Assembly (NCBI GenBank): GCA_903825395.1
Contig: CAIKAF010000010.1
Coordinates: forward strand, 16,700-80,699
Origin: an uncultured Flavobacteriales bacterium
Lineage (GTDB): Bacteria > Bacteroidota > Bacteroidia > CAIKAF01
Length of the DNA stretch: 64,000 bases
Direction of reading: 5' to 3'
Part shown: one piece after another, positions 11,229 to 46,334 of the stretch
Layout of the letters: each line of letters opens with the position of its first letter
Position numbering within the stretch: the first letter of the stretch is position 1
Program-made: the position numbers and the translations under genes
Notes under the pieces: generated by a model
Database searches by the model: none
What the model saw: the letters and a program-made list of their open reading frames with translations, nothing else
What the model was told of the DNA's origin: nothing

Positions 11229-11312
11229 GCAAACTAAACGAGGAAACAGGGGATTTGGTTTTAACCTCCCAGAGAATGGTCATCGCGGAAAGGAGAAGAC
11301 GTTGGATAATTT

Positions 11313-11812: not shown

Positions 11813-11841
11813 TAAAAATCTTAACTTAGCAATGCCAACTT

Positions 11842-12420: not shown

Positions 12421-12431
12421 CCAACACATTT

Positions 12432-12494
12432 GGTGGCACTTTTTCAAAATAGGACAAGCCCAACTCTAAAGCCCAGTTTTGAAAAAGTGCCACC
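12432..12494. terminator. perfect 18-bp inverted repeat (ggtggcactttttcaaaa ... ttttgaaaaagtgccacc) between convergent genes; candidate bidirectional terminator
   Basis: Arms at 12432-12449 and 12477-12494 with a 27-nt loop. It is flanked by A/T runs on both strands and sits between the ompA-like gene (+) and the beta-barrel gene (-). Confidence 0.4.
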
Positions 12495-12531
12495 TAGCCA
12501 ACGCACCAATACAGAGCAACATGTGCCCCCC

Positions 12532-14087: not shown

Positions 14088-14097
14088 GGCTGCAGGA

Positions 14098-14598: not shown

Positions 14599-14777
14599 AG
14601 CTGAAAGATAAACAATCCAATAGAATCAAGACAAAATCAAATTGAAAATGACTGAAAAAAGAAAGGAGAAAGGGCTATAAATTGTTTAAACTTCAAACGC
14701 CAAGGTTGGAACATCCGTTGATGCGCCTTGTGCGGTAAGAGGGAAAAACCGAGCAGAGCAACCGGATAAATGGCCAT

Positions 14778-24676: not shown

Positions 24677-25468
24677 ATGGAAGAGGCCCATTTTCATGCC
24701 GCCTTTCTTACCTTTGAATCAATGCAAAGCCAGAATAACGGTGTGTTGAATATTGATGCGGTGTTTGTTGTGCATGTAAAGCACGACCTTGAGCGTGAAA
24801 CCTGGATGCAGCAGCAATTGAATCGGTTGGGTATTGCCTTTCGTTGGATGTTGGAAGCAGACCTTCAAGAGCTAAGCCCCGAAATCATAGAGCAGTACTT
24901 TTCCGGAGATGAGATGGCCGGAGCCCCTAGGCCTGCCCATTCCTGTGCCTTAAAGCACCTGTTCATTTATCGAACTATGGTGCAAGAAAACATAGGGTCG
25001 GCCCTTATTTTAGAAGACGATGCCATTTTATCGAACAACTTTGTGCCGCTGTTCAATCAAATGGTAGAGGAATGGAAATCGTTGCCCGAGGCGGAACGCG
25101 ATATGGCCTTGATTAATCTTGAAAACAGCCTTCAGGTCTGGGTGCCGCGGAAGCAAAGAAAAAAAAATCAATTGCTCTATGCCATGCCCAAAGGCCGGGC
25201 AACCGGGGGGTATATGTTGAGCAAGCCCTTGGCCAAACGCATTTGGAATCATGCTCAGGAAAAGGGTTGCCATCGTCCAATAGACTGGTACCACAACGAC
25301 TTAAGCGGCATGATTGGGTTGAAGCATTACTGGGCGCATCCAACCTGCGTAGAGCAAGGCAGCCACAACGGCAGGTGGAAATCGTTGGTGGACCATAAGC
25401 CGGCGGGCTGGTTTCGGCAAATCACCTGGCAAGTTCAATTGAGAATAAAATCCCTTTTTGCTCCGTAA
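24677..25468 (+). CDS. glycosyltransferase family 25 (LPS/LOS biosynthesis, Lic2B/LgtB-like)
   Basis: IDAVFVVHVKHDLERETWMQQQL...ALKHLFIYRTMV...ALILEDDAIL is typical of GT25. Contains an A9 run in the coding sequence (25159-25167). Confidence 0.6.
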   Translation: MEEAHFHAAFLTFESMQSQNNGVLNIDAVFVVHVKHDLERETWMQQQLNRLGIAFRWMLEADLQELSPEIIEQYFSGDEMAGAPRPAHSCALKHLFIYRTMVQENIGSALILEDDAILSNNFVPLFNQMVEEWKSLPEAERDMALINLENSLQVWVPRKQRKKNQLLYAMPKGRATGGYMLSKPLAKRIWNHAQEKGCHRPIDWYHNDLSGMIGLKHYWAHPTCVEQGSHNGRWKSLVDHKPAGWFRQITWQVQLRIKSLFAP

Positions 25469-27296
25469 CTTGCATCCGGTGAATCGATTGTTGCGCATAT
25501 TTCATTTAACCCGAGGGCTCCGTAAAAACCTTTGGTTTTATCTTGTTTTTGGTTGGATAAGCACTTTTTTTGGCTTGTTTTCCTTGGTGTTGATTGCTCC
25601 CCTCCTGGAACTTATTTTTTATCCCTCGGCGCAGGTCAACAATGTAGCACCAAGCTGGGAATGGAGCAAACAAGGCATGTTGGACTCGGCCGAATATGCC
25701 CTTCACCACATTGGAGTCATACATGGACCTCAATTCGCCTTGCTGATGGTCTGCCTGTTTGTAGTAGCCGCCATTGGACTGAAAAACGGGTTTCATTATT
25801 GGGCAACCCGGCATTCCTCGCTGGTGGTAAATAAAAGCACAGAAACCCTTCGCAACCAGCTGTTTCGTCGGGTGTTAAATTTGCCTCAAGCCTACCTGAC
25901 CGATAGCCGCAAGGGAGAATTGGTGTCGCGCTTAACCAACGATGTGCAGGACATCGAGTTTTCAATATTGTCGGTGGTTACGGCCTTTTTTCGGCACCCA
26001 CTTCACATTGTTACCTACGTAGTTGCCTTGCTTCTGCTGAGTCCTCAGCTCACCTTATTTTTGCTTTTGTTTTTGCCCATCACCGGCGGCGTTATAGGCC
26101 TGGTTAGTCGCGCGCTGCGTAAAAACACCAGAATGGCACAACAGCATTTTGGTCGCCTGGTGGCCCACCTGGAAGAAAGCCTTAGCGTGTTGAAAATGAT
26201 TCGCTCCTTTGGTGCCGCCCCTTTTTTTACCGCCCGCTTTGAATCAGAAAATCGGGAATATACCCAGCGAAGAATTCGGATGTTTCGTCAGGCCGACCTT
26301 GCTGTTCCTTTGGGAGAGGTGCTTGGGGTTGCTGCTGTTGCCGCAGTGCTTTGGTGGGGCGGGTCACTGGTGTTTTCTGCTCAACTTTCGGCAGCTGCAT
26401 TTATTACTTACATCGTTGTTTTTGCTCAGCTTATCGAGCCATTTAAAGGGCTATCCAGATCCATTTACGATGCGCAAAAAGGAGTGGCGGCATTGGATGG
26501 AATCGAAGAAATGATTCGGCAGGCCAAGCCTCATGCCCTTAGCGAAGGCCAAGCGACCATGACTTCTTTTCAACACCACATTGAAATCCAAAACCTAGGA
26601 TTTCAGTTCGGCGAAGAGTGGATTTTGCGTGGAATGAACTTCAGCATTCCCAAAGGAAAAACAGTAGCCGTGGTGGGGCCATCCGGTTCTGGAAAAACAA
26701 CCCTAATCAATCTGTTGGCTCGGTTTTATGACCCCCTTGAAGGGCAAATCAGGGTTGATGGCGTCAATTTAAAGGAAATACGCCCCGAGGATTGGAGGAA
26801 GGTGTTGGCCTTGGTGAGCCAGGAAGCCCTGTTGTTCAACGACAGCATTGAAAGCAACATTCGGCTTGGGGAGCAGGATAGAACCGAAGACCACTTAATT
26901 CAGGCGGCTCAACAGGCCAATGCCTTGGAATTTATTCTGCAACAACCTCAGGGCTTTCAAACTCAGGTGGGCGACGGAGGCAATCGATTGTCTGGAGGTC
27001 AAAAGCAACGGATTGGATTGGCTCGGGCCTTGTACCATGGAGCAGAAATTTTGCTTTTGGATGAAGCGACGTCTGCCTTAGACTCGGAATCTGAGCGCGC
27101 GGTGCAGGCGGCATTGGCTCAATTGTCGGGGTGCCACACCTTGGTGGTTGTGGCCCATCGACTAAGTACGGTGCGGTCTGCCGACCTTATTTTGGTGTTG
27201 AAGGGCGGGAGGATACAAGAGGCAGGAACGCATCAGGAATTGATGGAACAGGGAGGCATGTACAAGTCAATGGTTGAGCTTCAGGCGTTTAGGTAG
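25458..27296 (+). CDS. ABC transporter permease/ATPase, MsbA-like lipid exporter
   Basis: 6-TM N-domain, then GPSGSGKTT, LSGGQKQRIGLARAL and LLLDEATSALD. 612 aa. Overlaps the GT25 gene by 11 nt. Confidence 0.8.
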   Translation: MLRNLHPVNRLLRIFHLTRGLRKNLWFYLVFGWISTFFGLFSLVLIAPLLELIFYPSAQVNNVAPSWEWSKQGMLDSAEYALHHIGVIHGPQFALLMVCLFVVAAIGLKNGFHYWATRHSSLVVNKSTETLRNQLFRRVLNLPQAYLTDSRKGELVSRLTNDVQDIEFSILSVVTAFFRHPLHIVTYVVALLLLSPQLTLFLLLFLPITGGVIGLVSRALRKNTRMAQQHFGRLVAHLEESLSVLKMIRSFGAAPFFTARFESENREYTQRRIRMFRQADLAVPLGEVLGVAAVAAVLWWGGSLVFSAQLSAAAFITYIVVFAQLIEPFKGLSRSIYDAQKGVAALDGIEEMIRQAKPHALSEGQATMTSFQHHIEIQNLGFQFGEEWILRGMNFSIPKGKTVAVVGPSGSGKTTLINLLARFYDPLEGQIRVDGVNLKEIRPEDWRKVLALVSQEALLFNDSIESNIRLGEQDRTEDHLIQAAQQANALEFILQQPQGFQTQVGDGGNRLSGGQKQRIGLARALYHGAEILLLDEATSALDSESERAVQAALAQLSGCHTLVVVAHRLSTVRSADLILVLKGGRIQEAGTHQELMEQGGMYKSMVELQAFR

Positions 27297-27354
27297 TCCG
27301 TTTGGGATTTGAAATTGGGGGCGGTTTACTATTACGGTAAAGAACGATTTTAGT

Positions 27355-27509
27355 GACTTGAAGTTTTTTTTGCCGCGAAGGACACCATGTCGGCACAAAG
27401 TGCACAGAGGGAGTGGTGTTATACCGAGAGTGTGCAGGAGTTCCGAGGCTCCTTTGCGAACATTGCGGCTTCCTTTGCGGCCATTGCGGTAAAAAATGGC
27501 GGTTAGGCC
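27355..27509 (-). repeat. dispersed repeat family 1, reverse orientation
   Basis: The reverse complement reads ttttttaccgcaatggccgcaaaggaagccgcaatgttcgcaaaggagcc...ccctctgtgcactttgtgccgacat, matching the 37783-37920 copy. Confidence 0.7.
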
Positions 27510-27602
27510 TTGATGGGTTTTTCACGGAAAAGAACACTTAAGCGACAACATTCAAAAATCCAAACCAGAGAAAGGCCTGTTTCCCCTCATATTTTATATT
27601 TG

Positions 27603-27639
27603 GGCGTAAATTTTACAATAGCATTGTAAAATTTACGCC
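27603..27639. promoter_or_regulatory. perfect 17-bp/3-nt-loop palindrome ggcgtaaattttacaat-agc-attgtaaaatttacgcc in the ~880-bp leader upstream of the pyrimidine-catabolism cluster; operator or terminator
   Basis: Perfect inverted repeat, read directly. Followed by attttatgtg. Sits between the two family-1 repeat copies. Confidence 0.5.
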
Positions 27640-27914
27640 ATTTTATGTGATACAACAAAAATCAGCCTTCTTGCTGGGGGAAATATCTTCATGATTGTAT
27701 TGATCATTGATTGCTATTCCGTAGCTCAAAACACCAGGACCCCGTGGGGGTGATATTATTGTAGGTGGCATTATTGTGGGATACATGATAATATTTGGAA
27801 TAGAAAATTTGCCTCACTCCCCCTCAGCGCCTTTTTCGGCTCCTTCATGGTAAAAATCCCATTAAAATAGCGAGAGTATTTTTTACCATTTCAATTCGGC
27901 GCAACGGGCACGGA

Positions 27915-28004
27915 GGGTGTGTTGTGTCGCTAGAGGGCTCGTGGCTCCTTTGCGAACATTGCGGCTTCCTTTGCGGCCTTTGTGTTAAAAATTGGCGGTT
28001 AGGC
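27915..28004 (-). repeat. dispersed repeat family 1, partial copy (reverse orientation)
   Basis: gctcgtggctcctttgcgaacattgcggcttcctttgcggcc...ggcggttaggcc is near-identical to 27440-27509. Confidence 0.6.
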
Positions 28005-28259
28005 CTATTAATTGCTTTTGATGGAGTCGAGCTGTTAAAACCCGAAAAGCGCTATAAATGGATGTAAACACTCCTACCTCCCCGATTCCCCCCGCCGGGT
28101 AAGATTTCATAGATTTTTGGAAGACCCTAAAAAACACTGATTTACAGATACTTAACCGATTCGCTCCGGCAAAGCCCGTTGCGTTTCAGTTCTTTTGTAA
28201 TAACTTGTCCTTTTAAAACCTTAAACCGCGGCGAAACCCCGCCAAATTTGTACAAAACT

Positions 28260-29729
28260 ATGACGATTGCTGAATTGACTTTGCCCCAAGCTCGACACCT
28301 GATTGCAGGCAAAACGCTGGAATTGAACGGGCCTGCGCTGGAAGTGATTAGCCCCATTGACGGACAGTTGCTGTCGATGGTGCCCATGGGCGGAATGAAT
28401 GAAGTAGATATGGCTGTGGAAGCCGCCAAAACGGCCTACACCGCTTGGTCGGCCAAAACCCTGAAAGAACGCGTTCAGATTTTCTTCCGCTACCGGCAGT
28501 TGCTGGAAACCCATATGGAAGAGCTGACCCGCCTGGTGCACATTGAAAACGGCAAAACCATGGATGAAGCACGGGCCGAAATTGAAAAAAGCATGGAACT
28601 CTGCGAATTCGCCGTTTCTATGCCTCAAATTATTGTGAATGAAGTGCAAGAGGTGAGCCGCGGCGTGGAAGCACGCATTGAGAAAAAACCGCTGGGCGTG
28701 GTGGCCTGCATCAGCCCCTTTAATTTTCCGAATATGGTTCCGCATTGGACGGTGCCCAACGCGATCGTTTTGGGGAACTGCGTGATTTTAAAGCCATCGG
28801 AAGTGGTGCCATTAAGCGCCATGCGCATGGCGGAACTGCTAACAGAAGCAGGCTTGCCCGATGGCGTGTTCCAAGTGGTGCACGGTGGCAAAGACGTGGT
28901 GGAAGCCCTCTGCGATCACCCCGGAATTCAAGCCGTTTCTTTTGTTGGCAGTACGGCTGTAGCCAAACTGGTATATATTCGGGCAACCTCAAACCTGAAG
29001 CGCTGCGTGGCCTTGGGTGGCGCCAAAAACCACCTTCTGGTCTTGCCCGACGCACACCTGGAAATGACGGCCAGCAATGTAGTGGCATCTATGAGCGGAT
29101 GCGCCGGACAGCGCTGCATGGCGGCTTCTGTAATGGTGGCCGTAGATCAGGTGCAGCACATCATTGACCGAATGGTTGATGAAGCCAAGGCCATCGTGCC
29201 CGGAAAAAACCTAGGATCGGTCATTAGTGCAGCCGCCAAAGAACGCATTGAACGATACATTACCGAAGCCGAGCAAGCCGGAGCAAAAATCTTGGTGGAT
29301 GGTCGCGGGGCTACCGTTCCCGGAAAAGAAGGCGGTTTTTATGTAGGCCCCACCATTATTGACTATGTAACGCCCGATATGGCCGTGGCCAAAGAAGAAA
29401 TTTTTGGTCCGGTGATTTCCATTGTCCGTACCAAAACCCTGGACGAAGCCCTAGAGGTGGAAAACAGCTCGAACTATGGAAATGCCGCCGCCGTATTCAC
29501 TCAAAGCGGTTCGATGGCGAAAGTGGTCATGGAGCGCGCCAGCGCCGGGATGATTGGGGTGAACATTGGGGTACCTGTTCCTCGCGAGCCGTTCTCCTTC
29601 GGGGGCTGGAACGACTCAAAATTCGGAATGGGGGATATTACCGGAAAATCGTCCATTGAATTTTGGACTCAAAACAAAAAAACCTCCACCAAATGGAATC
29701 CGGAGGCCCGCACCAATTGGATGAGCTAA
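28260..29729 (+). CDS. mmsA: CoA-acylating malonate/methylmalonate-semialdehyde dehydrogenase (aldehyde dehydrogenase family)
   Basis: ALDH motifs FNFPNMVP, VGSTAVAKLVY and the catalytic Cys region. ~490 aa as for MmsA. Start moved to MTIAELTL. Confidence 0.75.
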   Translation: MTIAELTLPQARHLIAGKTLELNGPALEVISPIDGQLLSMVPMGGMNEVDMAVEAAKTAYTAWSAKTLKERVQIFFRYRQLLETHMEELTRLVHIENGKTMDEARAEIEKSMELCEFAVSMPQIIVNEVQEVSRGVEARIEKKPLGVVACISPFNFPNMVPHWTVPNAIVLGNCVILKPSEVVPLSAMRMAELLTEAGLPDGVFQVVHGGKDVVEALCDHPGIQAVSFVGSTAVAKLVYIRATSNLKRCVALGGAKNHLLVLPDAHLEMTASNVVASMSGCAGQRCMAASVMVAVDQVQHIIDRMVDEAKAIVPGKNLGSVISAAAKERIERYITEAEQAGAKILVDGRGATVPGKEGGFYVGPTIIDYVTPDMAVAKEEIFGPVISIVRTKTLDEALEVENSSNYGNAAAVFTQSGSMAKVVMERASAGMIGVNIGVPVPREPFSFGGWNDSKFGMGDITGKSSIEFWTQNKKTSTKWNPEARTNWMS

Positions 29730-29749
29730 TTACAAAGAACGAAGAGAGT

Positions 29750-31081
29750 ATGATGTCAACGAGTGTAAAAGACAGTTTAGACTACACCTTATTTTCTTGG
29801 TCAAAGCAATCGGGGTTGAATCCGATTGAAATTGATCGTGCAGAAGGGGTGTATTTGTGGGATGCCCAAGGCAAGCGCATTATTGATTTTTCGTCGCAGC
29901 TGATGAATGTGAACATAGGGCACGGGAACCAGCGCGTTACTCAGGCAGTGGCCCGGCAAATGGAAAAAGTCAGTTATGTGTATCCCGGTATGATTACCGA
30001 GGTGCGTGCCCAACTGGGAAAGAAGATGGCCGAAATTACGCCGGGCGATTTAAGCAAGGCTTTTTTCACTTTAGGCGGCGCTGAGGCCATAGAAAACGCG
30101 ATTAAAATTGCCCGGATGTACACCGGCAAGCATAAAATTATTGCGCAATACCGCTCCTACCATGGGGCGACCTACGGGGCCGGTTCGGTAAGTGGAGATC
30201 CGCGCAGGCATCCTATGGACAGTCAGGCCATGCCCAGTGTTACCCACGTAGAAAATCCGTACTTCTATCGCTGCCCCTGGGGAACTCGGACGGCCGAAGA
30301 ATGTGGAGAAATGGCAGCACGCAACCTGGAACAGGTGATTTTGTACGAAAACCCCGGTAACATTGCCGCCATATTAATGGAGGGAGAAAGCGGTTCTTCA
30401 GGCTGCATAAAATACCCGGCAGGGTACTGGAAAAAAGTGCGGGCCATTGCCGACAAATACAATATTCTGCTCATTTGCGATGAAGTTATGAGCGGATTTG
30501 GTCGCACCGGAAAATGGTTTGGCATCGACCACCATGAAGTGGTTCCTGACATCATGTGCATGGCCAAAGGCATCACTTCCGGATATGTGCCCTTAGGTTG
30601 CACCATGGTGAATGCTGCTATTGCCGCCTATTTTGAAGACCGCCCGCTGGCGGCAGGACTCACCTATTCTGCTCATCCCGTGGCGTGTGCCGCGGCCATT
30701 GAGAACCTGAAGGTGATGGAGGAAGGAAATATGATTCAAAATGCGGCCGAAATGGGTAGGTATATGGAGCAGCGGGTGGCCGAACTGGCTCAGCAGCACC
30801 CCAGCATTGGAGATTTTAGAAATACCGGATTGCTGGGTTGCATTGAATTGGTGAAAAACCGAGAAACCAAAGAGCCGACTGTGCCCTGGAATGCGGCCCC
30901 GGCACATATGGAGCCAACCAACCGCATGGCTGCCAAGCTAAAGGAACTGGGTATGTTCACCTTTGTGCGTTGGAACTGGATTTTTGTAGCTCCTCCGCTC
31001 TGCATCACCAAAGACCAAATTGATGAAGGTCTAGATATTGTTCGCGAAGCCTTGCACATTGCCGACGAGTACTGCCATTAA
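29750..31081 (+). CDS. class-III (omega) aminotransferase, beta-alanine/omega-amino-acid:pyruvate type
   Basis: The DEVMSGFGRTGKWFG block (PLP Lys region) and GHGNQRV. ~443 aa. Start at MMSTSVKD. Confidence 0.8.
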   Translation: MMSTSVKDSLDYTLFSWSKQSGLNPIEIDRAEGVYLWDAQGKRIIDFSSQLMNVNIGHGNQRVTQAVARQMEKVSYVYPGMITEVRAQLGKKMAEITPGDLSKAFFTLGGAEAIENAIKIARMYTGKHKIIAQYRSYHGATYGAGSVSGDPRRHPMDSQAMPSVTHVENPYFYRCPWGTRTAEECGEMAARNLEQVILYENPGNIAAILMEGESGSSGCIKYPAGYWKKVRAIADKYNILLICDEVMSGFGRTGKWFGIDHHEVVPDIMCMAKGITSGYVPLGCTMVNAAIAAYFEDRPLAAGLTYSAHPVACAAAIENLKVMEEGNMIQNAAEMGRYMEQRVAELAQQHPSIGDFRNTGLLGCIELVKNRETKEPTVPWNAAPAHMEPTNRMAAKLKELGMFTFVRWNWIFVAPPLCITKDQIDEGLDIVREALHIADEYCH

Positions 31082-31086
31082 GATTC

Positions 31087-32823
31087 ATGGAACAGACCAA
31101 CAGCACCGAATCCTACAAGCACTCTTCGTTGTATAGCGAAGAGCTGGCTCCTGTGCCGGTTTCAGGACGCACTTGGAACCATTGGCATTTGGCCGCTTTG
31201 TGGGTAGGTATGGCGGTCTGCATTCCAACTTGGTTGTTGGCATCCTACATGCTGAAAGCCGGTTTAAATTGGATCGAGGCCTTACTTATTATTGGTTTAG
31301 CCAATGTGGTGATTACGGTCCCCATGGTGCTAAATGGCTATGCCGGCGTAAAGTACGGCTTGTCTTTTCCGGTGATTGGCAGGTCGGCTTTTGGAGTGCA
31401 TGGCATTCATATAGCATCGATGATGCGGGCATTGGTGGCTTGCGGGTGGTTTGGAGTTCAAACTTGGGTGGGAGGCCTAGCCATTGGAGCTATTCTTAGT
31501 TTGCTGCTGGGAGAACCCTATCAAGAGGGAACTACCATGTTGAATTTTGTCGGGTTTGGACTGTTCTGGCTGATTTCCATGTTTTTTGTGGTGAAAGGGT
31601 TTGAGGGAATTAAGTGGCTGGAAGAGTATTCGGCGCCGGTCCTCATTGCCGTTGGGATAGGCTTAATTGCTTGGGGCGTTTTGGTCGGCGGTGGGTTTGG
31701 CCAAGTGCTGAAACAAAGCGAACAGCTTCAAACCGGATCGGCACATCGGGAACTGCAGAACGGACAGGATATGGTATTTTTTCATCCGCTGACCAATTCG
31801 GCCGGGGAATGGAAAGCCGATGTGGTGAAGGTACGTGCCCTAGCCTCAGGAAACGACTCGGAAGTGTTTGAGCTGCCTAGGTCCTACGGTGAACGGCCCT
31901 TTTTCACTTCGGCCTTGGGTGCCGACCATTCTAAAGACACCTTGGCGGTTTGGTTTGAAACCCGCGATGCTCAGGGCAAGTTGCTTAGTGCATCCACGCC
32001 TCAACGTTTGAATCCGTCTCAGGCAGGGGCATCTGCCGGAATTGGCTGGTGGGATTATTTGTTGTGGTTTACCGCTATGGTGGGATTTTGGGCCACAATG
32101 GCCATCAGTATTTCAGACATTACCCGCTACGCCAAAAACCAACGGGCTCAGGTGTCAGGACAGTTTATTGGCTTGCCGGCCACCATGATGTTGTTTTCGT
32201 TTGTCGGCCTGTTTGTTACGAGCGCGGCCGCCATAGCCTTTGCAGATGTATTGACTCAGGAAGGCGCCCCTTGGGATCCCGCCAGTTTGCTATCGCATTT
32301 CAACCAACCTCTGGTGGTAATTGGAACCCAATTGGTGTTGTTGGTAGCCACGCTAAGCACCAATTTAGCGGCCAACGTCATTGCGCCGGCAACGGCCTTC
32401 TCGAACATGTGGCCCCAACGAATTTCGTTCCGAACCGGTGGCTTACTGACCGGCGTTATTGGAATTGCAATTTGTCCATGGTGGCTGTTGAACGAAATTT
32501 CCTCCATTTTACTTTTGGTTAGCGCCTTCCTAGGTCCGGTATTGGGCATTTTATTGGCCGATTATTTCTGGGTTCGGAAGCAGAAACTAGATGTAAATAG
32601 CTTGTTTTCTTTGTCGGGCATCTATCAATACAATTCGTTTGGTATAAATCCGAAAGCCATTCTGGCCCTGTTGCTGGGAATTGGAATGGCCTTGATCGGA
32701 GTTTGGGTAGAAGCCCTAGCCTTTTTATATCAAATTGCCTGGTTCACCGGATTCATTGTTGCCTTTTTGGTGTATGGATTAGGAATGAAACAGAACTTAA
32801 CATCAACCCCATCTGAGCCATGA
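31087..32823 (+). CDS. NCS1-family nucleobase:cation symporter (uracil/thymine/hydantoin/allantoin-type permease) with ~100-aa extra loop
   Basis: 12 hydrophobic helices. N-terminal SEELAPVP.SGRTW..WHLAALWVG is typical of NCS1. A hydrophilic insert lies at about aa 200-300. Confidence 0.7.
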   Translation: MEQTNSTESYKHSSLYSEELAPVPVSGRTWNHWHLAALWVGMAVCIPTWLLASYMLKAGLNWIEALLIIGLANVVITVPMVLNGYAGVKYGLSFPVIGRSAFGVHGIHIASMMRALVACGWFGVQTWVGGLAIGAILSLLLGEPYQEGTTMLNFVGFGLFWLISMFFVVKGFEGIKWLEEYSAPVLIAVGIGLIAWGVLVGGGFGQVLKQSEQLQTGSAHRELQNGQDMVFFHPLTNSAGEWKADVVKVRALASGNDSEVFELPRSYGERPFFTSALGADHSKDTLAVWFETRDAQGKLLSASTPQRLNPSQAGASAGIGWWDYLLWFTAMVGFWATMAISISDITRYAKNQRAQVSGQFIGLPATMMLFSFVGLFVTSAAAIAFADVLTQEGAPWDPASLLSHFNQPLVVIGTQLVLLVATLSTNLAANVIAPATAFSNMWPQRISFRTGGLLTGVIGIAICPWWLLNEISSILLLVSAFLGPVLGILLADYFWVRKQKLDVNSLFSLSGIYQYNSFGINPKAILALLLGIGMALIGVWVEALAFLYQIAWFTGFIVAFLVYGLGMKQNLTSTPSEP

Positions 32824-34205
32824 AAACCTTGATTCAAAATGGAACGCTGGTAACCGCAGAAGCGACATTTGCCGCCGATTTATTGGTAGAAAACGACAAA
32901 ATTGCAGGGATTGGGCATGCCTTACCTACCCAGGGCGTAGATCGGGTGATTGATGCCTCTGGCAAATTGGTGATTCCCGGCGGAATTGACCCCCATGTGC
33001 ATTTGGATATGCCATTTATGGGAACCTATTCCAGCGACGATTATACCACCGGAACTCGTGCAGCCCTGTTTGGCGGTACCACCATGGTGATTGATTTTAT
33101 TCTTCAAACCCAGGGCGATACCTTATACAATGCGCTTCGCACCTGGCAGAAAAAATCGGAAGGAAAAGCAGTGGGCGATTACTCCTACCACATGGCCGTT
33201 ACCGATTTCAATCCCGACGTCGCCAAAGAGGTGGTAGCCATGATTGAAAAAGAAGGCATTAGCTCCTTCAAAACGTTTATGGCCTATAAAGGCGCCCTGA
33301 TGATTGACGACGGGCAGATGATGAACCTGATGCGTGTGGTGCGTGACCACGGGGGCTTGGTTACCGTGCATGCCACCAATGGCGACATGATTGATGCCCT
33401 GATTGCCCGGCATAAGCGGGAAGGGAAGTTAAGCCCCTTATATCACTATTTGTCTCAGCCGGAAATTACGGAAGCCGAAGCTTCTGGTCGTTTTGCCGAC
33501 CTGCTTTATTACACCGGCTGCCCAGGATATATTGTCCACATGACCTGCGAAGGTGCTTTAAATGCCGTTCGGCGAGCCACTTTACGCAACCAGCGGGTGT
33601 TGGTTGAAACCTGCACCCAATATTTGGTCTTGGACGCCTCCCTGTACGAAAAAGGGTTCGAAGCCGCCAAGTGGGTCATGAGCCCGCCCTTGCGCCAACC
33701 CAAAGACCAAGAAGCCTTATGGGCCGGATTAAATCAAGGCTTGGTTCAGGTGGTTGGTACCGACCACTGTCCCTTTATGTGGGAGCAAAAGAAAATGGGA
33801 GAAACCGATTTTAGCAAAATCCCGAACGGGCATCCGGCCATAGAACACCGGGTAGAGCTTTTGTTTTCAGAGGGAGTAGCTAAAAACCGCATTACCCTGA
33901 ACAAATTTGTAGAAGCCAGTTCAACCCGAGCGGCCCAAATTTTTGGGATGCACCCCAGAAAAGGAACCTTGTCGGTGGGTGCCGATGCCGATATCGTCAT
34001 TTTTAATCCCGAAATCAAGCATAAAATTTCGGCGGCCACCCACCACATGCGCTGCGACTATTCCGCCTACGAAGGCATGGAATTGACCGGCAAAACCGAA
34101 ACCGTTTTATTGCGCGGAGAATTGGCTATTCACAACAACGAATGCCTGATTCAGCCCGGTTACGGCCAATTTATTCACCGAGGAAAAACACAACATTTAG
34201 GATAA
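32820..34205 (+). CDS. dihydropyrimidinase / D-hydantoinase (cyclic amidohydrolase)
   Basis: GGIDPHVHLDMPFMGT metal-binding motif. 461 aa. Strong match to the dihydropyrimidinase family. Confidence 0.8.
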   Translation: MKTLIQNGTLVTAEATFAADLLVENDKIAGIGHALPTQGVDRVIDASGKLVIPGGIDPHVHLDMPFMGTYSSDDYTTGTRAALFGGTTMVIDFILQTQGDTLYNALRTWQKKSEGKAVGDYSYHMAVTDFNPDVAKEVVAMIEKEGISSFKTFMAYKGALMIDDGQMMNLMRVVRDHGGLVTVHATNGDMIDALIARHKREGKLSPLYHYLSQPEITEAEASGRFADLLYYTGCPGYIVHMTCEGALNAVRRATLRNQRVLVETCTQYLVLDASLYEKGFEAAKWVMSPPLRQPKDQEALWAGLNQGLVQVVGTDHCPFMWEQKKMGETDFSKIPNGHPAIEHRVELLFSEGVAKNRITLNKFVEASSTRAAQIFGMHPRKGTLSVGADADIVIFNPEIKHKISAATHHMRCDYSAYEGMELTGKTETVLLRGELAIHNNECLIQPGYGQFIHRGKTQHLG

Positions 34206-34224
34206 ACGACAAACAAACACCACT

Positions 34225-35091
34225 ATGCCAAGAAACGTAAAAAGCGGACTTATTCAGTTGTCCCTGCCCATGACCGAAGGCGAAGGCAGCATTCAAGACA
34301 TTTGCGAAGCCATGTACCAAAAACATGTGCCCTATATTGAAGAAGCAGGCAGAAAAGGAGTACAGATTCTGTGCTTCCAAGAGATTTTTAACACGCCCTA
34401 CTTTTGTCCGGGCCAAGACAAACAATGGTACAACTCGGCCGAGCCTGTACCTGGCCCTACCGTAGCCCGCTTGCAAGAGTACGCCAAGAAATACCAAATG
34501 GTGATTATTGCTCCTTTGTATGAGATGGAGATGCCCGGCGTATATTACAACACCGCGGCGGTAATTGATGCCGACGGCACCTACTTGGGCAAATACCGTA
34601 AAAACCACATTCCACACACTTCCGGCTTTTGGGAAAAATTCTTTTTTAAGCCAGGGAACCTAGGATATCCGGTGTTTCAAACCAAGTATGCCAAAGTGGG
34701 CGTGTACATTTGCTACGATCGGCACTTCCCTGACGGAGCACGGATTTTAGGACTGAACGGCGCCGAAATTGTGTACAACCCCAGCGCTACAGTTGCCGGT
34801 CTTTCTCAGTACCTATGGAAATTGGAACAACCTGCACATGCGGCTGCCAATGGATATTTCATGGGCTGCATCAACCGAGTAGGAACCGAAAAACCCTGGA
34901 ATCTGGGCAAGTTTTACGGTAGCTCGTACTTTGTAGATCCCCGCGGACAAATTTTTGCCCAAGCCTCGGAAGACAACGATGAATTGCTGGTGGCTGATTT
35001 TGACTTAGATATGATTGATGAGGTGCGCTCTACCTGGCAGTTCTTCCGCGATCGTCGCCCCGAAACCTATGGCAAACTAACTGAACTTTAA
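34225..35091 (+). CDS. nitrilase-superfamily CN hydrolase, beta-ureidopropionase / N-carbamoyl-amino-acid amidohydrolase-like
   Basis: Glu (FQEIFNTPYF), Lys (YRKNHIP) and Cys (VGVYICYDRHFPD) catalytic-triad blocks. Confidence 0.7.
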   Translation: MPRNVKSGLIQLSLPMTEGEGSIQDICEAMYQKHVPYIEEAGRKGVQILCFQEIFNTPYFCPGQDKQWYNSAEPVPGPTVARLQEYAKKYQMVIIAPLYEMEMPGVYYNTAAVIDADGTYLGKYRKNHIPHTSGFWEKFFFKPGNLGYPVFQTKYAKVGVYICYDRHFPDGARILGLNGAEIVYNPSATVAGLSQYLWKLEQPAHAAANGYFMGCINRVGTEKPWNLGKFYGSSYFVDPRGQIFAQASEDNDELLVADFDLDMIDEVRSTWQFFRDRRPETYGKLTEL

Positions 35092-35096
35092 GGCAG

Positions 35097-36398
35097 ATGG
35101 CTGAATACAAACGACCCGAAACGCCCCAGGAGTATCAGCGGAATTTTCCGCCGAAAAAACCCCTGATGAACACCTCCGAGGCTTATTATGAGAGTGCCCG
35201 ATGCCTATATTGCTACGATGCTCCATGCATGACCGCTTGCCCCACCCACATTGATATTCCTCTGTTTATTAAGCAAATAAATACCGGAAACGTCAAAGGG
35301 GCGGCGGCTACCATTTACGATTCAAATTGGTTGGGGAATGCCTGTGGAAAGGTATGTCCGACAGAACAATTGTGCGAAGGCAGCTGTGTGTACACAGAAC
35401 AAGACATGAAGCCGTTGCAGATTGGTCGGCTTCAGAATTTCGCCACCGAAGCGGTGATGCAAGCAAAAACGCCGTTGTTCAAGCCCGGTCCGGACAATGG
35501 ACGCCGGGTGGCCATCGTGGGCGCCGGCCCCGCCGGAATTGCCTGCGCTTGCGAATTGAGGGTATTGGGCTACAGCGTCGAGATTTTCGAAGCTAAAGCC
35601 CTGCCAACCGGCCTTACCGTGTATGGAACTGCTCCCTACAAAATTACCAATGAAGAGGCCCTCAGGGAAAACGAATACCTACAACAACAGCTGGGCTATA
35701 CCGTACATTACAATCAGCCCATTCAAAATGCCGCTCAATTTGCCGAATTGGAAAAACAGTTTGATGCCGTTTTTCTGGGACTAGGCCTAGGAGCTACAGC
35801 TCAACTCAACATTCCCGGCGAAGAACTGCCCGGTGTGGTTGGTGCCGTTGAATTTGTTGAAGAACTGCGCATGAAACAGCATGCATTTCAGGTTCCGGAA
35901 CGGGTTGTGGTGATTGGCGGTGGAAATACCGCTGTGGATGCCGCCAGTGAATCTGCCCGCATGGGAGCCCAGTCGGTGCATTTGGTGTACCGCCGAACCA
36001 AGGCCGATATGGGAGCCTATGATTTTGAATATGCTACGGCCTTAGCTGCCGGCGTGCAAGGCGTGTTCGAGGCTAGTCCCCTGCGCATTGAAGGCGAAAA
36101 TAAAGCCTCAGGCGTAACGTTTTCCCGCCCCGACGGATCGGAATTTCATTTGCCTGCCGACCTCGTGATTAAGGGAACCGGACAGGCCAAGCAAGGCGCC
36201 CTTTTGGCGCATTTACCCAACATAAGTACCGACGCAAAGGGCCGCGTTGTGGTTGACGCTGCATATCAAACTTCTCGTCCCGGATATTTCGCTGCCGGCG
36301 ACATGGTGAACGGCGGAGCTGAAGTGGTGAATGCCGCTTACGAAGGTAAGCTGGCCGCCCAGGGTATACATCAGTGGATTCAAAATAAAAACGCATGA
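35097..36398 (+). CDS. preT: NAD-dependent dihydropyrimidine dehydrogenase subunit PreT (GltD-like; 4Fe-4S + FAD/NAD)
   Basis: Cys clusters CLYCYDAPCMTACP...CGKVCP...CEGSC. Dinucleotide folds VAIVGAGPAGIACA and VVVIGGGNTAVD. Confidence 0.75.
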   Translation: MAEYKRPETPQEYQRNFPPKKPLMNTSEAYYESARCLYCYDAPCMTACPTHIDIPLFIKQINTGNVKGAAATIYDSNWLGNACGKVCPTEQLCEGSCVYTEQDMKPLQIGRLQNFATEAVMQAKTPLFKPGPDNGRRVAIVGAGPAGIACACELRVLGYSVEIFEAKALPTGLTVYGTAPYKITNEEALRENEYLQQQLGYTVHYNQPIQNAAQFAELEKQFDAVFLGLGLGATAQLNIPGEELPGVVGAVEFVEELRMKQHAFQVPERVVVIGGGNTAVDAASESARMGAQSVHLVYRRTKADMGAYDFEYATALAAGVQGVFEASPLRIEGENKASGVTFSRPDGSEFHLPADLVIKGTGQAKQGALLAHLPNISTDAKGRVVVDAAYQTSRPGYFAAGDMVNGGAEVVNAAYEGKLAAQGIHQWIQNKNA

Positions 36399-37753
36399 GC
36401 AACATCGATCTTTCCATAAATTTTGCCGGAATTAAAGCCCCAAATCCTTTTTGGTTGGCCTCGGCGCCGCCCACCAATACCGGATATCAAATCATGAAAG
36501 CCTTTGAGGCCGGATGGGGTGGTGCCGTTTGGAAAACCTTGGGCGTTCCTGTTCAAAACGTGTCTAGCCGTTACGGCTCCATCAATTACCGCGATACGCG
36601 CATGGCCGGGCTCAATAACATCGAGCTAATTACCGACCGACCCCTGGCCGACAACCTGCGCGAAATTGAGGAAGTCAAAAAATACTTCCCCAATCATGCT
36701 GTGATTGCTTCGTTAATGGTTGAATCCAAAAAAGAGTGGTTTCAAATTGTAAAGGATGTTGAGAATGCCGGGGCCGATGGTATAGAATTGAATTTCGGCT
36801 GCCCACATGGCATGTGCGAACGCGGCATGGGATCGGCCGTAGGCCAAGAACCCGAAGTCTTGAACACCATTGTTCAATGGGTAATGGAAGCGGCAACGGT
36901 TCCGGTCATCACAAAATTGACTCCCAATATTTCCGACATCACTGACCCGGCTTTGGCGGCGGTACGCGGCGGCACCAGCGCCCTGTCGCTCATCAATACA
37001 ATCAAAAGCATCGTTGGAATTGATTTAGACACCTATGCGCCCTATCCTGTAGTGGACGGCAAAGGCACCAATGGCGGATATTGTGGTCCGGCGGTAAAGC
37101 CAATCGCCTTGCACATGCTCAAAGAACTGGCCGGACATCCTGAAATCAGAAATACGCCCATCAGCGGCATTGGGGGCATTGAAACCTGGCGCGATGTGGT
37201 GGAATTTATCTTGCTCGGCGCTACTTCGGTGCAAGTATGCACCGCGGTGATGCACTATGGGTTTGGTATTGTGCGCGAAATGGAAGCTGGTTTGCGCCAG
37301 TTTATGAGCGACAAAGGCTACAGCACCATCTACGATTTTGCCGGGAAGGCTGTGCCAAACGTGGTGGAATGGAAAAACCTAAACTTGCATTACAAGGTGG
37401 TGGCCAGCATCAATGCCGACAAATGCATTGGCTGTCAGCTCTGTCACATTGCATGCGATGACGGTGCTCACCAGGCCATTGCTCTGCCCACCAATGGCAG
37501 TCGTGTGCCTGAAATCATCGACGAAAACTGCGTCGGCTGCAATTTGTGTTCACTGGTTTGCCCTGTCGAAGAGTGCATTACCATGGAACGCCGCGACGAC
37601 GGCAGCCAAACAGAAAGCTGGGCCGAGCGCACCATGGCCGGCAAAGTTCCGGAGCATTTCAATGACCCTAGGGGTGGCGGAGTGGGCCATTTTGTTCCAG
37701 AGCCTTCGGCAGCGCTGCAATACAAGCGTAAAGATCGTTCTGGTCGGAAGTGA
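36395..37753 (+). CDS. preA: dihydropyrimidine dehydrogenase subunit PreA (DHOD-like TIM barrel + C-terminal 2x[4Fe-4S] ferredoxin)
   Basis: ELNFGCPHGM active-site block. Ferredoxin motifs CIGCQLCHIACDD and CVGCNLCSLVCP. Overlaps preT by 4 nt. Confidence 0.8.
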   Translation: MSNIDLSINFAGIKAPNPFWLASAPPTNTGYQIMKAFEAGWGGAVWKTLGVPVQNVSSRYGSINYRDTRMAGLNNIELITDRPLADNLREIEEVKKYFPNHAVIASLMVESKKEWFQIVKDVENAGADGIELNFGCPHGMCERGMGSAVGQEPEVLNTIVQWVMEAATVPVITKLTPNISDITDPALAAVRGGTSALSLINTIKSIVGIDLDTYAPYPVVDGKGTNGGYCGPAVKPIALHMLKELAGHPEIRNTPISGIGGIETWRDVVEFILLGATSVQVCTAVMHYGFGIVREMEAGLRQFMSDKGYSTIYDFAGKAVPNVVEWKNLNLHYKVVASINADKCIGCQLCHIACDDGAHQAIALPTNGSRVPEIIDENCVGCNLCSLVCPVEECITMERRDDGSQTESWAERTMAGKVPEHFNDPRGGGVGHFVPEPSAALQYKRKDRSGRK

Positions 37754-37782
37754 TTTTTGAGTGTGGTTAAGGCTTGACTGCC

Positions 37783-37920
37783 TTTTTTTACCACCAAGGC
37801 CGCCAAGGGAGCCGCAATGTTCCCAAAGGAGCCTCCAAACTCTTGCACACCCTCGCTGTAACTACATTCCCTCTGTGCCCTTTGCGCCGACATTGAGTCC
37901 TTTGTGGTAAAAAACAGGTT
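37783..37920 (+). repeat. dispersed repeat family 1
   Basis: tttttaccaccaaggccgccaagggagccgcaatgttcccaaaggagcc...ctctgtgccctttgcgccgacattgagtcctttgtggtaaaaaacagg. Lies between convergent preA and the PNP gene. Confidence 0.7.
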
Positions 37921-37939
37921 CCGGCTTCAATGCCACTGT

Positions 37940-38767
37940 TTATTTCGCTTCTTGTGCCAAGCGCAAGCCACCCAAAATGATTTCCGACATGGTTTTTCCG
38001 GCGGTTTCGGCCGCATTTAAAACGTCTTGCAATACTACCTTGCGTATTCGGCCCGGCACTCCCAAATCGGTGATGGCAGAAAAACCGGAACACCCTATTC
38101 CCATGTGCCGAGCAGCCAACACTTCGGGTACTGTAGACATGCCCACGGCGTCTGCGCCAATGGTTCGTATCCATCGGTATTCTGCCGGTGTTTCCAGAGC
38201 TGGGCCCTTCAGGGCAGCATACACTCCCTCATGCATTTTTGTGTTTAAGTGTTGGGCCGCCTGTCTGAAATATCCGGCCCAAGTAGCATCATAGGAATCG
38301 TGCATGTCTGGAAACCTGGGGCCCAATTGCTCAATATTGGGTCCCGACAAGGGGGAGTCTCCCAGCAAATTCAAATGGTCGGTAATCATCATCACTTCGC
38401 CCACTTCCATATCTGGATTCACTCCGCCTGCGGCGTTGGTCACCACCAAATGGGTTATCCCCAACATTCCCATCACCCGAATTGGGAATACCACCTGAGC
38501 CAACGAATAGCCTTCATAGTAATGAAAGCGCCCTTTCATTCCCAACACCTTAAACCCTTGGATTGTTCCCGCATGCAATTCGCCGGCATGGCTTTGAACT
38601 GTACTTGTTGGAAAATGGGGTATTGCAGAATAGGGAATTCGTTGGGCGTCTTTCATTTCTTTCATCAGTTGGCCCAAACCGGTTCCTAGAACCAAGCCAA
38701 TTTCGGGCTGAAATCCTTGCAATTCCTTCTTAAGAAAGTTTGCGGCTTCGTTCAATTCTGTCCACAT
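37940..38767 (-). CDS. purine nucleoside phosphorylase (PNP/MTAP family)
   Basis: 275 aa. The GTGLGQL, HFPTSTVQSHAGEL and AVGMSTVPEV blocks are typical of PNP-I. Confidence 0.75.
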   Translation of the reverse strand: MWTELNEAANFLKKELQGFQPEIGLVLGTGLGQLMKEMKDAQRIPYSAIPHFPTSTVQSHAGELHAGTIQGFKVLGMKGRFHYYEGYSLAQVVFPIRVMGMLGITHLVVTNAAGGVNPDMEVGEVMMITDHLNLLGDSPLSGPNIEQLGPRFPDMHDSYDATWAGYFRQAAQHLNTKMHEGVYAALKGPALETPAEYRWIRTIGADAVGMSTVPEVLAARHMGIGCSGFSAITDLGVPGRIRKVVLQDVLNAAETAGKTMSEIILGGLRLAQEAK

Positions 38768-39713
38768 GCTGCATGATTTTTTGAGTTAATTCTGATGCTG
38801 AAGGCCGAAGGATCGACAGGCGCAAAGGTACAAGGGCCAAGCGTGATAGGGTAGCTGCTGCAGGCCCCAATCGAGCCAAATCCTTACCTGTAGTTAGAAT
38901 ATATCGCCCGGCGGCCCGACGCTCCAGTGCCTCTATTTCCTTCGTGTTCATATGGCCATGATCGGGGAGGGCATAGGGTTCCCAACCGGGGAATGCTAGG
39001 CGCAAACTTTGGTTGTCTGCCAGGCCGGTCAGCAAAATTCCCGGAACTTCCGGATTGATTTGATTTCCAGTTCGCAGATCGACTGCCGGACCCATTTCTT
39101 CCAAAAAGCAGGCATCCCAATCGCTGGGGCAATCCATATTGGGCGGACATTTGGTTAAAAAAAGAACATCAAATTGGGTTCGGGTTCGGAAGGGTTGCCT
39201 CCAACGGCCTGCGGGAAGCAGGTCCTTATTCCTCTGATTAAAAGCGGAATGGCTGACCAAACAAATGGAAATGTCGGGTTGCAGGAGGTGGTGTTGTAAG
39301 CCATCGTCCAACAGCACCCATTGTACCTGTGGGTGGTGTTTTTGAATCCATTCCACGCCTTTTCTTCTGTTTTCTGAAACAACAACGGGCAGATGTGGAA
39401 GCGCGCGTTTGAGTTCCAAGGCCTCGTCGCCGGTTTCTGTTGCCAGGCTATTGACAAGGACCTCTACGATACCCTTACTTGTCCTTCCATATCCCCTAGA
39501 AAGGATTCCGATGTTTCGGTGTTGACAAAGCTGTTCTGACAGCCAGCGCACCATGGGCGTTTTTCCGCTGCCTCCAACGGTTAAGTTCCCCACCACCAGG
39601 GTGGGCAAAACGGCCTTTTTCCTCAGGCCCAAACGGAAAATAAGAAAGCGGTGCAGTAAAAACCCAAGCCAATACACGGGCACCAATATCCGAAACCAAG
39701 GGCTTGGGCTCAT
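38730..39713 (-). CDS. lpxK: tetraacyldisaccharide 4'-kinase
   Basis: P-loop VVGNLTVGGSGKTPMV at the characteristic position. 327 aa. Confidence 0.75.
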   Translation of the reverse strand: MSPSPWFRILVPVYWLGFLLHRFLIFRLGLRKKAVLPTLVVGNLTVGGSGKTPMVRWLSEQLCQHRNIGILSRGYGRTSKGIVEVLVNSLATETGDEALELKRALPHLPVVVSENRRKGVEWIQKHHPQVQWVLLDDGLQHHLLQPDISICLVSHSAFNQRNKDLLPAGRWRQPFRTRTQFDVLFLTKCPPNMDCPSDWDACFLEEMGPAVDLRTGNQINPEVPGILLTGLADNQSLRLAFPGWEPYALPDHGHMNTKEIEALERRAAGRYILTTGKDLARLGPAAATLSRLALVPLRLSILRPSASELTQKIMQHVDRIERSRKLS

Positions 39714-39830
39714 GCTTCAAAGGTAGGGGTTGTAGGGGAGGTTTGAAAGGGGAGCACGTATTGGATTTGGAATTTTAGGTTGTCCCCTCGTTTCCAATAC
39801 ATTCTATTACGAATCCCCCCCAAGTCTCAA

Positions 39831-39985
39831 CGCCGCCCGCGGCAGGGATTGAAGAGGGTAGGACGCCAGTGTGCCGGAGCCTGGCCCGCGAGGCGCGGAG
39901 GCGACCTTGGGAGCCCCCGCAAGCCCGCTGGGCCAGCCTTCCGGCACCGGCGGACTAGCCCTGAAAGCCCGCCCGCCGCCCCCCC
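39831..39985 (-). repeat. GC-rich dispersed element, copy B (reverse orientation)
   Basis: cccgcggcagggattgaag...gcggaggcgaccttgggagcccccgcaagcccgctgggccagcc...gaaagcccgcccgccgccccc. Confidence 0.8.
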
Positions 39986-39996
39986 CCAAAAAAAAA
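39979..39996. repeat. homopolymer tract C9 followed by A9
   Basis: cccccccccaaaaaaaaa read directly. Lies 143 nt upstream of the 40139 ORF start, at the edge of repeat copy B. Confidence 0.9.
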
Positions 39997-40138
39997 TCAA
40001 ATACCCCCACAATCTCCGCAATAAAATCGGGGCAGCAGACCCAATCTGCTCAAGCCGTTTGCCTCACGCAGATAAAACCACTTAAAATTTAATTTTCTCG
40101 GTGTATCTTTAACCTAATGTTATCAGGAAACCAACCCT

Positions 40139-44427: not shown

Positions 44428-44436
44428 GAGGGGTAT

Positions 44437-44586
44437 TCGGGCGGCAGCCGGGCTTTCAGGGGTAGTCTGCCCTTGCCGAAAGGCGGGCCCAGCGGGCTTG
44501 CGGGGGCTCCTAAAGTCGCCTCCGCGCCGCGCGGGCCCGGCTTCGGCAACGGGCAGAGCTACCCTCTTCAATCCCTGCCGCGGGCC
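44437..44586 (+). repeat. GC-rich dispersed element, copy C
   Basis: gggcggcagccgggctttcaggggtagtc...gcgggcccagcgggcttgcgggggctcctaaagtcgcctccgcgccgcgcgggcccggc...caatccctgccgcgggcc. Overlaps the last ~6 codons of menD. Confidence 0.8.
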
Positions 44587-46220: not shown

Positions 46221-46334
46221 GCAACAAAGTAACGAAAAAGAGGGCTAGATGTTCCCAAGTATAGCCCCAAGGCCCCGGAATGAAGGGACACAACTATCGC
46301 GCAATTTCCAGTCTCAAGACCTATCTTTGCATCT

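Follow-up and report, generated by a model that had tools for sequence, protein, structure and literature searches.

Bacterial gene clusters for reductive pyrimidine catabolism (Pyd), comprising PydA1/A2, PydB, PydC, PydD and MSDH, have already been described, as outlined in PMC7332683 (which refers to Kao & Hsu 2003 and Yin et al. 2019). According to the same paper, PydR and RutR, both of the TetR family, regulate the breakdown of pyrimidines in Pseudomonas putida and E. coli (with Hidese et al. 2012 as its source). A cluster of this kind was analysed in a 64-kb stretch of DNA (hereafter the window) from a freshwater metagenome-assembled Bacteroidota genome, where it follows a long intergenic gap that contains two copies of a dispersed repeat (family-1) and a perfect palindrome. 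The window operon is ordinary, because over 60 loci of aquatic Bacteroidota have the same gene order, and Pyd clusters of this kind are known already. Comparison of these loci favours, with a probability of roughly two in three, a widely conserved Pyd operon preceded by a gap whose distal ~680-760 bp (27297 to ~27976-28058) would be a lineage-specific rearrangement junction, with control of the operon residing in 28059-28259 and the palindrome acting mainly as a terminator.

The organism is represented solely by metagenome assemblies. T9SS-sorted proteins are encoded nearby, and the closest catalogued genomes are metagenome-assembled genomes (MAGs) labelled "Bacteroidetes bacterium" and "uncultured Flavobacteriales". 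With the NCS1 permease as query, a scan of genomes returned five that have the operon (L006-L010), a metagenome scan gave 80 further loci (L072-L151), most of them long enough to display gene order, and contigs of sister strains (L158-L164) were retrieved by their 100% identical PreA. The seven-gene order recurs in the five genomes and in most of the 80 metagenome loci; identity of the operon proteins to those of the window is 96-100% in L007, 87-98% in L006, 62-92% in L008-L010 and 50-87% in the metagenome loci. The order mmsA, aminotransferase, NCS1 permease, dihydropyrimidinase, beta-ureidopropionase, preT, preA appears typical of aquatic Bacteroidota, and a literature search found no paper describing this order for Bacteroidota. 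One fixed seven-gene Pyd operon that is widespread in freshwater and marine Bacteroidota is relevant to the turnover of pyrimidines and dissolved organic nitrogen. In 20 loci, among them many marine operons (L081, L082, L090, L093, L095, L098, L101, L107, L113, L120 and others), an extra membrane protein of ~440-480 aa, resembling by eye a sodium:solute-symporter-type transporter, is encoded between the permease and the dihydropyrimidinase; seven loci have an adenine-deaminase-like gene, likewise judged by eye, directly upstream of the operon.

Pfam and NCBIfam models identify the seven co-directional open reading frames (ORFs) of 28260-37753 as mmsA, aminotransferase, NCS1 permease, dihydropyrimidinase, CN-hydrolase, preT and preA (Table 1), which on these predicted activities is a genuine reductive pyrimidine-catabolism operon. 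An earlier note on this DNA had proposed a complete route from uracil or thymine to acyl-CoA, with a dedicated NCS1 permease, in one operon, and the hidden Markov model (HMM) scores and conservation in dozens of related loci bear this out. The permease would import the base, PreT/PreA would reduce uracil or thymine, the dihydropyrimidinase would open the ring, and the CN-hydrolase would release beta-alanine or beta-aminoisobutyrate with NH3 and CO2, from which the aminotransferase and then the CoA-acylating semialdehyde dehydrogenase would lead to acetyl-CoA or propionyl-CoA. The genes had been said to run in pathway order with 4-nt overlaps; the actual order is the reverse of the pathway, with the permease mid-cluster, and 4-nt overlaps are found only at permease/dihydropyrimidinase and preT/preA, the junctions in operon order being -37 or +20 (for an aminotransferase start at 29693 or 29750), +5, -4, +19, +5 and -4 nt. 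Homologue alignments of the aminotransferase open at residue 14-19, and its start is possibly 29750 rather than 29693. Its closest structure in the Protein Data Bank (PDB) is a taurine:2-oxoglutarate aminotransferase (330 bits), and its role as PydD is putative. The CN-hydrolase is a probable beta-ureidopropionase by gene context: its PDB matches to the fly (204 bits) and human (198 bits) beta-ureidopropionases are equalled by that to a plant N-carbamoylputrescine amidase (202 bits), and it scores 243 bits with the NCBIfam aguB model, under the cutoff of 410. Compared with the hydantoin permease Mhp1, the NCS1 permease has an insertion of ~100 aa (residues ~196-329) between Mhp1 residues ~184 and 215, of which the length is kept and the sequence poorly conserved among Bacteroidota homologues, and in which no domain was identified. 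An in-frame extension of mmsA to a TTG at 28179 was rejected, since indels break that frame in L006 and the alignments with homologues start at residue 1, from the ATG at 28260.

The intergenic gap from the stop codon of the MsbA-like exporter gene to mmsA measures 963 bp (27297-28259), not the ~880 bp stated before. A blastn comparison of 27200-28300 with the relatives matched only 28059-28300 (L007, 89% identity) and 28163-28300 (L006, 80%). Neither the repeats nor the spacer nor the palindrome has a counterpart among the five related genomes or the 80 metagenome loci with the same cluster, and no homologue of the spacer (27512-27880) was found in these or elsewhere in the window. Conservation of the leader among relatives is thereby divided: the distal ~680-760 bp is unconserved and only the promoter-proximal ~165-200 bp is conserved. 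The distal part (27297-27976) occurs solely in loci that have the MsbA-like exporter as left neighbour. Sister strains L158-L160 have the exporter upstream and keep the palindrome, with a gap of 1118 bp that is 156 nt longer than that of the window because a 52-nt unit (ACCCCGTAGGGGTGATATTATTGTAGAAGGTATTGGAGCTCAGGACATCAAA), present once in the window (~27739-27790), is repeated in 3.5 tandem copies (L158 1189-1370; Tandem Repeats Finder period 52). In sister strain L164 the left neighbour is an AAA_14/DUF4143 gene, as in L007; the palindrome is absent, and sequence is shared with the window only from 27977, a breakpoint inside repeat copy 2.

The context of the exporter and lpxK was compared with genus-level relatives (L154-L156). 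Relatives with a 73%-identical exporter have the order adh-endonuclease-GT25-exporter-lpxK-PNP, all co-directional and without Pyd genes, with 183 nt between exporter and lpxK, where PNP denotes purine-nucleoside phosphorylase. Because the window, compared with this order, has lpxK-PNP inverted and the Pyd operon inserted between the exporter and lpxK-PNP, the gap is read as a rearrangement junction that splits msbA from lpxK. It would have arisen when the operon came to lie between the MsbA-like exporter gene and its usual partner lpxK, and would have been filled by copies of a mobile-type hairpin repeat, the variable 52-nt tandem unit and AT-rich filler with one palindrome. The left neighbour of the operon differs among the window, L007/L164, L006, L008 and L010; the right flank, PNP-lpxK, is stable throughout the close strains. 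Every small ORF of the gap either derives from a repeat or lacks conservation. When the exporter gene was sought in other contexts, to learn whether the palindrome follows it there, every contig retrieved had this same arrangement. Identity of the left-hand gene of L007 with the peptidase C1 gene of the window was considered, and comparison showed otherwise. The region is heavily rearranged also in that an OEP/HlyD block that follows PNP in L155 sits ~10 kb upstream in the window. L161 has, at 11824-14777, genes for a MutH-like endonuclease, a DNA methylase and an HTH protein (restriction-modification-like) between lpxK and the gene of a T9SS-sorted protein, an insertion that the window lacks.

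The two reverse-orientation family-1 repeats that the earlier note placed upstream of the operon are real, with HMM bounds of 27350-27524 and 27869-28007 instead of 27355-27509 and 27915-28004. The unit is ~155 nt long, ends in TTTTTACC...GGTAAAAA and is internally palindromic, and its copies match the HMM on the opposite strand too; its predicted folding is weakly better than that of shuffled sequence (z -0.8 to -2.1). All copies found with the HMM in the window are intergenic and are spread over three gaps. The third, after preA, is complementary over 146 nt (82%) to 27366-27511 and opens with a small hairpin and T-run, with a terminator-like site at 37769-37784; strain L159 has two copies after preA where the window has one. 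Family-1 is present in the window organism and L007 and absent from L006 despite the 87-98% identity of the pathway proteins. The L006 operon is flanked on both sides not by family-1 but by a second, GC-rich repeat family, which folds as one ~150-nt hairpin (-106 kcal/mol, z -6.4), occupies at least seven other gaps of the window and is common to genus-level relatives (L006 2187-2335; L152 ~5850-6000). One end of the GC-rich repeat resembles a tRNA T-arm (GGTTCAATCCCTGCC); an identity as tRNA was rejected, as neither ARAGORN nor Rfam returned anything. Some repeat is held by 11 of the 17 intergenic gaps of at least 100 nt in the window, and no transposase-like gene was found in its 64 kb. Family-1 is a lineage-specific dispersed hairpin repeat, a generic intergenic element of this genome, and a long, repeat-rich, palindrome-bearing gap is no evidence of a dedicated leader where most intergenic gaps hold hairpin repeats. 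Tandem hairpin arrays of other kinds are found at 60479-60691 (a 42-bp unit, GGGCAGACCTACGTGTCTGCCCC..., in at least four copies) and at 4411-4707 (a 49-55-bp unit, GAGCCAAGGCACGCCTTGGCTC..., in five copies), the latter starting in an intergenic gap and taking in the first ~200 nt of the ORF 4491-5294.

The last ~200 bases before mmsA are likely to control the operon. In an alignment of six genomes, shared motifs are confined to the last ~165 nt before mmsA; the final 90 nt before the start codon (28170-28259) are invariant among the window, L158/L159 and L007, and single-nucleotide differences between strains cluster in 28067-28095 and 28146-28168, the latter being the 5' arm of an imperfect hairpin. 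In L001-L010 the motif GTAAGAT-N6-12-TTTTTGRWA, with a chance expectation of 0.02 in the window, is found once in each locus and each time upstream of mmsA; a search of 156 loci showed it nowhere else. Further shared motifs are CTGAT, TGTAATAACTTG (28196-28207) and a 4-bp hairpin with CAAATTTG just 5' of the ATG. The operon promoter and 5' untranslated region may lie within 28059-28259, with TTTTTGG at 28114-28120 as a weak -7 box that would give a leader of ~130 nt. The imperfect hairpin, which folds with z about -2.4 in the window and L007, precedes UUCUUUUGU in the window, L007 and L006 and does not do so in L008-L010; across the six window-clade genomes, RNAalifold found neither a consensus structure nor covariation support in the proximal block. 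The place to look for control of the operon is thus narrowed to about 200 bp. Exact TAnnTTTG boxes elsewhere in the window end 4-5 nt before the start codons of lpxK (39718-39725, minus strand; kept in L154 as TACCTTTGACCTATG) and metH (46322-46329, plus strand), which suggests leaderless or near-leaderless mRNAs in this lineage.

That no cognate regulator is visible in the cluster, as noted earlier, extends to its surroundings: no transcription-factor gene was found in the 64-kb window, and no regulator is recurrently linked to the cluster across 85 loci. A riboswitch in 27300-28260, which the earlier note had raised, finds no support in covariance scans: with Rfam, the whole window gave no match at the gathering score, and 27200-28400, searched at E up to 10, gave only eukaryotic snoRNA/miRNA noise. 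No RutR-like box is present in the gap; the two sites with at most three mismatches in the window lie inside genes and are below chance expectation.

In 19 marine or aquatic loci the sequence before mmsA runs from a TATATTTG box through a hairpin of ~50 nt, set at a constant 58-nt spacing, to UUAUUUUUUGU. The basal stem of this leader (P1, AGAGUGC/GCAUUCU) shows AU/GC and CG/UA swaps, with 80% of cells paired; covariation is 0.315, compared with 0.229 in shuffled alignments (none of 500 shuffles reaches the observed value) and 0.11-0.21 in slid controls, and the minimum free energy has a z of -4.2. RNAalifold found no consensus structure on the unrefined alignment, and an Rfam scan of four of the marine loci matched no family to the leader. 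Run over 862 kb, a covariance model (R1) of the 19 leaders recovered no loci beyond those used to build it. The U-rich motif after the marine hairpin resembles UUCUUUUGUAAUAACUUG of the window. It is conceivable, though rather doubtful, that Pyd operons of aquatic Bacteroidota are controlled in cis by an undescribed leader of promoter box, ~50-nt hairpin and U-tract, an attenuator sensing pyrimidine nucleotide supply or an RNA-binding factor, of which window positions 28099-28259, with the shared UUCUUUUGU...AAUAAcUUG, would be a diverged member. Such a leader, if real, would explain why no regulator gene is linked to the cluster. The conserved, un-catalogued hairpin/U-tract leader of the marine relatives may be a Pyd attenuator, with weak support within the window itself.

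The perfect palindrome at 27603-27639 that the earlier note singled out is real and far beyond chance (17+3+17; -23.8 kcal/mol, z -6.5), and it is the sole perfect hairpin of more than 11 bp in the 64 kb. With its tail, ATTTTATGTG, it forms a stem-loop and U-rich tail on the strand of the upstream exporter gene, and it is the only strong plus-strand terminator-like site between the exporter stop codon and mmsA, ranking top among such sites in 20 kb. It is identical in L158-L160 and absent from L161-L164 and L006-L010; L007 and L006 have a left neighbour that runs on the other strand. No match was found in viral contigs. Because it ranks first among terminator-like sites and occurs solely in strains with a co-directional gene running toward the operon, the best guess is that it is an intrinsic terminator insulating the operon from msbA read-through: the palindrome and its AUUUUAU tail would end transcripts that run on past the co-directional exporter block before they enter the catabolic operon.

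Several points weigh against a terminator at the palindrome and a promoter near mmsA. The palindrome begins 307 nt past the exporter stop codon, and it is no textbook terminator, its stem being AT-rich (5 of 17 pairs are G-C) and its tail having 5 T in 7. An exact -7 box abuts the stem, although such boxes number 39 in the window where 38.7 are expected and this match alone is not significant, and the candidate promoters of the proximal block are imperfect Bacteroidetes -7 boxes. The layout of promoter, hairpin and U-rich stretch at the palindrome is the same as in the marine mmsA leaders, and the best window match of R1 falls there, at noise level (20.8 bits, E 0.71). Each arm holds an 11-bp sub-palindrome, GTAAAWTTTAC; an ordinary RNA hairpin can do without one, and it could point to protein binding. 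The correlation of the palindrome with a co-directional neighbour amounts to few independent arrangements, and L164, which has different left-hand genes on the plus strand and yet lacks the palindrome, fits it poorly. Promoter, transcription start and termination are, moreover, all inferred from sequence.

The palindrome and spacer may instead be functionless, a by-product of rearrangement or repeat turnover (for example template-switch repair or a mobile-element remnant). The site is a demonstrable rearrangement junction with variable repeats, the perfect 17/17 match suggests a recent origin, and no homologue is found elsewhere; nevertheless, a hairpin with a U-rich tail is the layout that a terminator needs, and absence of function is unlikely. 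Identity of the palindrome in contigs of several samples and in two leader variants also speaks for function, with little weight because the flanks are near-identical too. Somewhat less probable again is a promoter-proximal element, in which transcription would start at the TATATTTG box (27595-27602) and the hairpin or operator would head a ~650-nt leader, as a strain-specific second promoter of the operon or a short non-coding transcript. Besides the abutting box and the R1 match, the mmsA genes of marine relatives are immediately preceded by a -7 box, a hairpin and a U-tract, and the sub-palindromes, 20 bp apart, would suit a dimer-of-dimers operator. Homology of the palindrome to the marine leader was nonetheless rejected, since the R1 match does not rise above noise and has counterparts of similar score within coding sequence of L008; -7 boxes in the window are about as frequent as chance predicts, there are sister strains that retain the operon without the element, and a 650-nt leader with a mobile repeat would be unusual. 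A regulon built on GTAAAWTTTAC was also discarded, the only third site (GTAAATTTTAC), at the fabD start, being not above chance. That stretch (61637-61667, TTCATGGTAAATTTTACATTAAGATTAGCG), which covers the fabD start codon and holds the only other GTAAATTTTAC in the window, resembles spacer positions 27844-27873 (80.6% identity, E 0.23), probably by chance.

It is improbable that the operon and its flanking inverted repeats form a mobilisable cassette relocating through recombination between dispersed repeats. Inverted family-1 copies do bracket the operon in the window and L007, as copies of the second family do in L006, the left neighbour varies (the window, L007/L164, L006, L008 and L010), and one breakpoint lies inside a repeat; against this, neither a transposase nor an integrase lies close by, the right flank does not vary among the close strains, most intergenic gaps hold repeats in any case, and the proposal is compatible with the junction explanation rather than an alternative to it. 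A pyrimidine-responsive module dedicated to the operon (operator, attenuator or small RNA), as which the earlier note read the two repeats and the palindrome, is very improbable despite the striking arrangement, the perfection and uniqueness of the palindrome in the window and the lack of a regulator gene that would otherwise explain control, since the distal ~680-760 bp is absent from every relative with the operon, including strains with identical PreA and another left neighbour, the repeats are generic and found also after preA and elsewhere, repeat copy number and spacer length vary by strain, and Rfam has no match.

Table 1. Positions of the features discussed (window coordinates unless a locus is named).
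Feature	Position	Strand	Remarks
MsbA-like ABC exporter	25458-27296	+	last gene of upstream co-directional block; ABC_membrane + ABC_tran; homologues named MsbA / lipid A export
Family-1 repeat, full copy	27350-27524	-	nhmmer 157 bits, E 1e-47; 54 nt after exporter stop codon
AT-rich spacer	27525-27868	.	38% GC; holds the palindrome and one 52-nt unit
TATATTTG	27595-27602	+	exact match to Bacteroidetes -7 box TAnnTTTG; abuts palindrome
Perfect palindrome GGCGTAAATTTTACAAT-AGC-ATTGTAAAATTTACGCC, then ATTTTAT	27603-27639	+	candidate intrinsic terminator
Family-1 repeat, second copy	27869-28007	-	shorter loop, nearly full length; nhmmer 87.6 bits
Conserved candidate promoter/leader block	28059-28259	+	only part of gap common to relatives: L007 89% from 28059, L006 80% from 28163
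Clade-specific motif GTAAGAT-N9-TTTTTGGAA	28099-28122	+	TTTTTGG part = candidate weak -7 box
Imperfect hairpin (CUGA...UCAG), then UUCUUUUGUAAUAACUUG	28137-28207	+	3' half conserved, 5' arm variable
mmsA, CoA-acylating (methyl)malonate-semialdehyde dehydrogenase	28260-29729	+	TIGR01722 507 bits, cutoff 448.5
Class-III omega-aminotransferase (PydD-like)	29693-31081	+	PF00202; NF004718 515 bits
NCS1 nucleobase/hydantoin-type permease	31087-32823	+	PF02133 in two stretches
Dihydropyrimidinase	32820-34205	+	TIGR02033 566 bits, cutoff 393
CN-hydrolase, probable beta-ureidopropionase	34225-35091	+	PF00795 222 bits
PreT-like dihydropyrimidine dehydrogenase subunit	35097-36398	+	Fer4_20 + Pyr_redox_2; PDB 4ylf_B ('dihydropyrimidine dehydrogenase subunit A') 259 bits
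PreA dihydropyrimidine dehydrogenase subunit	36395-37753	+	NF006183 664 bits, cutoff 335
Family-1 repeat, third full copy	37756-37931	+	fills preA/PNP convergent gap; nhmmer 171 bits
PNP + LpxK	37940-39713	-	inverted relative to msbA-lpxK-PNP of relatives
Family-1 repeat, further copies	7498-7655, 7652-7813, 8527-8688, 8684-8753		HMM
Family-1 repeat, short fragments	7478-7501, 27819-27861 (weak)		HMM
Second repeat family, GC-rich, ~150 nt	11304-11465, 39827-40007, 44434-44598, 56868-57026, 58416-58599, 62978-63142, 63257-63416		
Marine mmsA leader	L096:4003-4098, L090:4000-4095, L082:2472-2567, L113:223-317 and 15 more loci		

Among known elements, rho-independent terminators share with the palindrome a stable stem-loop followed by a U-rich tail; they differ in that the stem of the palindrome is unusually long, perfect and AT-rich, its tail is short, and it lies well beyond the stop codon. 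Repeats of the REP/BIME, ERIC and Correia types (MITE-like) are, like family-1, internally palindromic, multicopy, intergenic, often at gene 3' ends and sometimes in tandem, as well as lineage-specific and variable in copy number between strains; family-1 is not known to be related in sequence to these families. Some pyrimidine genes are controlled by leader-terminator attenuators, such as the UTP-sensitive attenuation of pyrBI in E. coli. The marine leaders resemble attenuators of the pyrBI type in the layout that precedes mmsA, with promoter box, hairpin of ~50 nt and U-tract, and in the window a related U-rich motif, UUCUUUUGUAAUAACUUG, is retained behind the imperfect hairpin. In contrast to the pyrBI type, neither a leader peptide nor an alternative antiterminator pairing was identified, the window-clade hairpin is without covariation support, and the Pyd operon is catabolic rather than biosynthetic; the comparison is purely hypothetical.

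PydR and RutR regulate the same pathway as that encoded by the window operon; unlike those systems, the window and the neighbourhoods of the relatives' clusters contain no gene for a TetR-family or other regulator, and the gap has no site resembling a RutR box. The window operon differs from the described Pyd clusters in the ~100-aa insertion of its permease and the lack of a linked regulator, and also in its PydC, a short CN-hydrolase of the nitrilase superfamily that is close to the eukaryotic enzyme. The two-subunit PreT/PreA type of the E. coli enzyme is matched by the window operon, and its enzyme set and logic are the same as those of the bacterial Pyd clusters described in PMC7332683.

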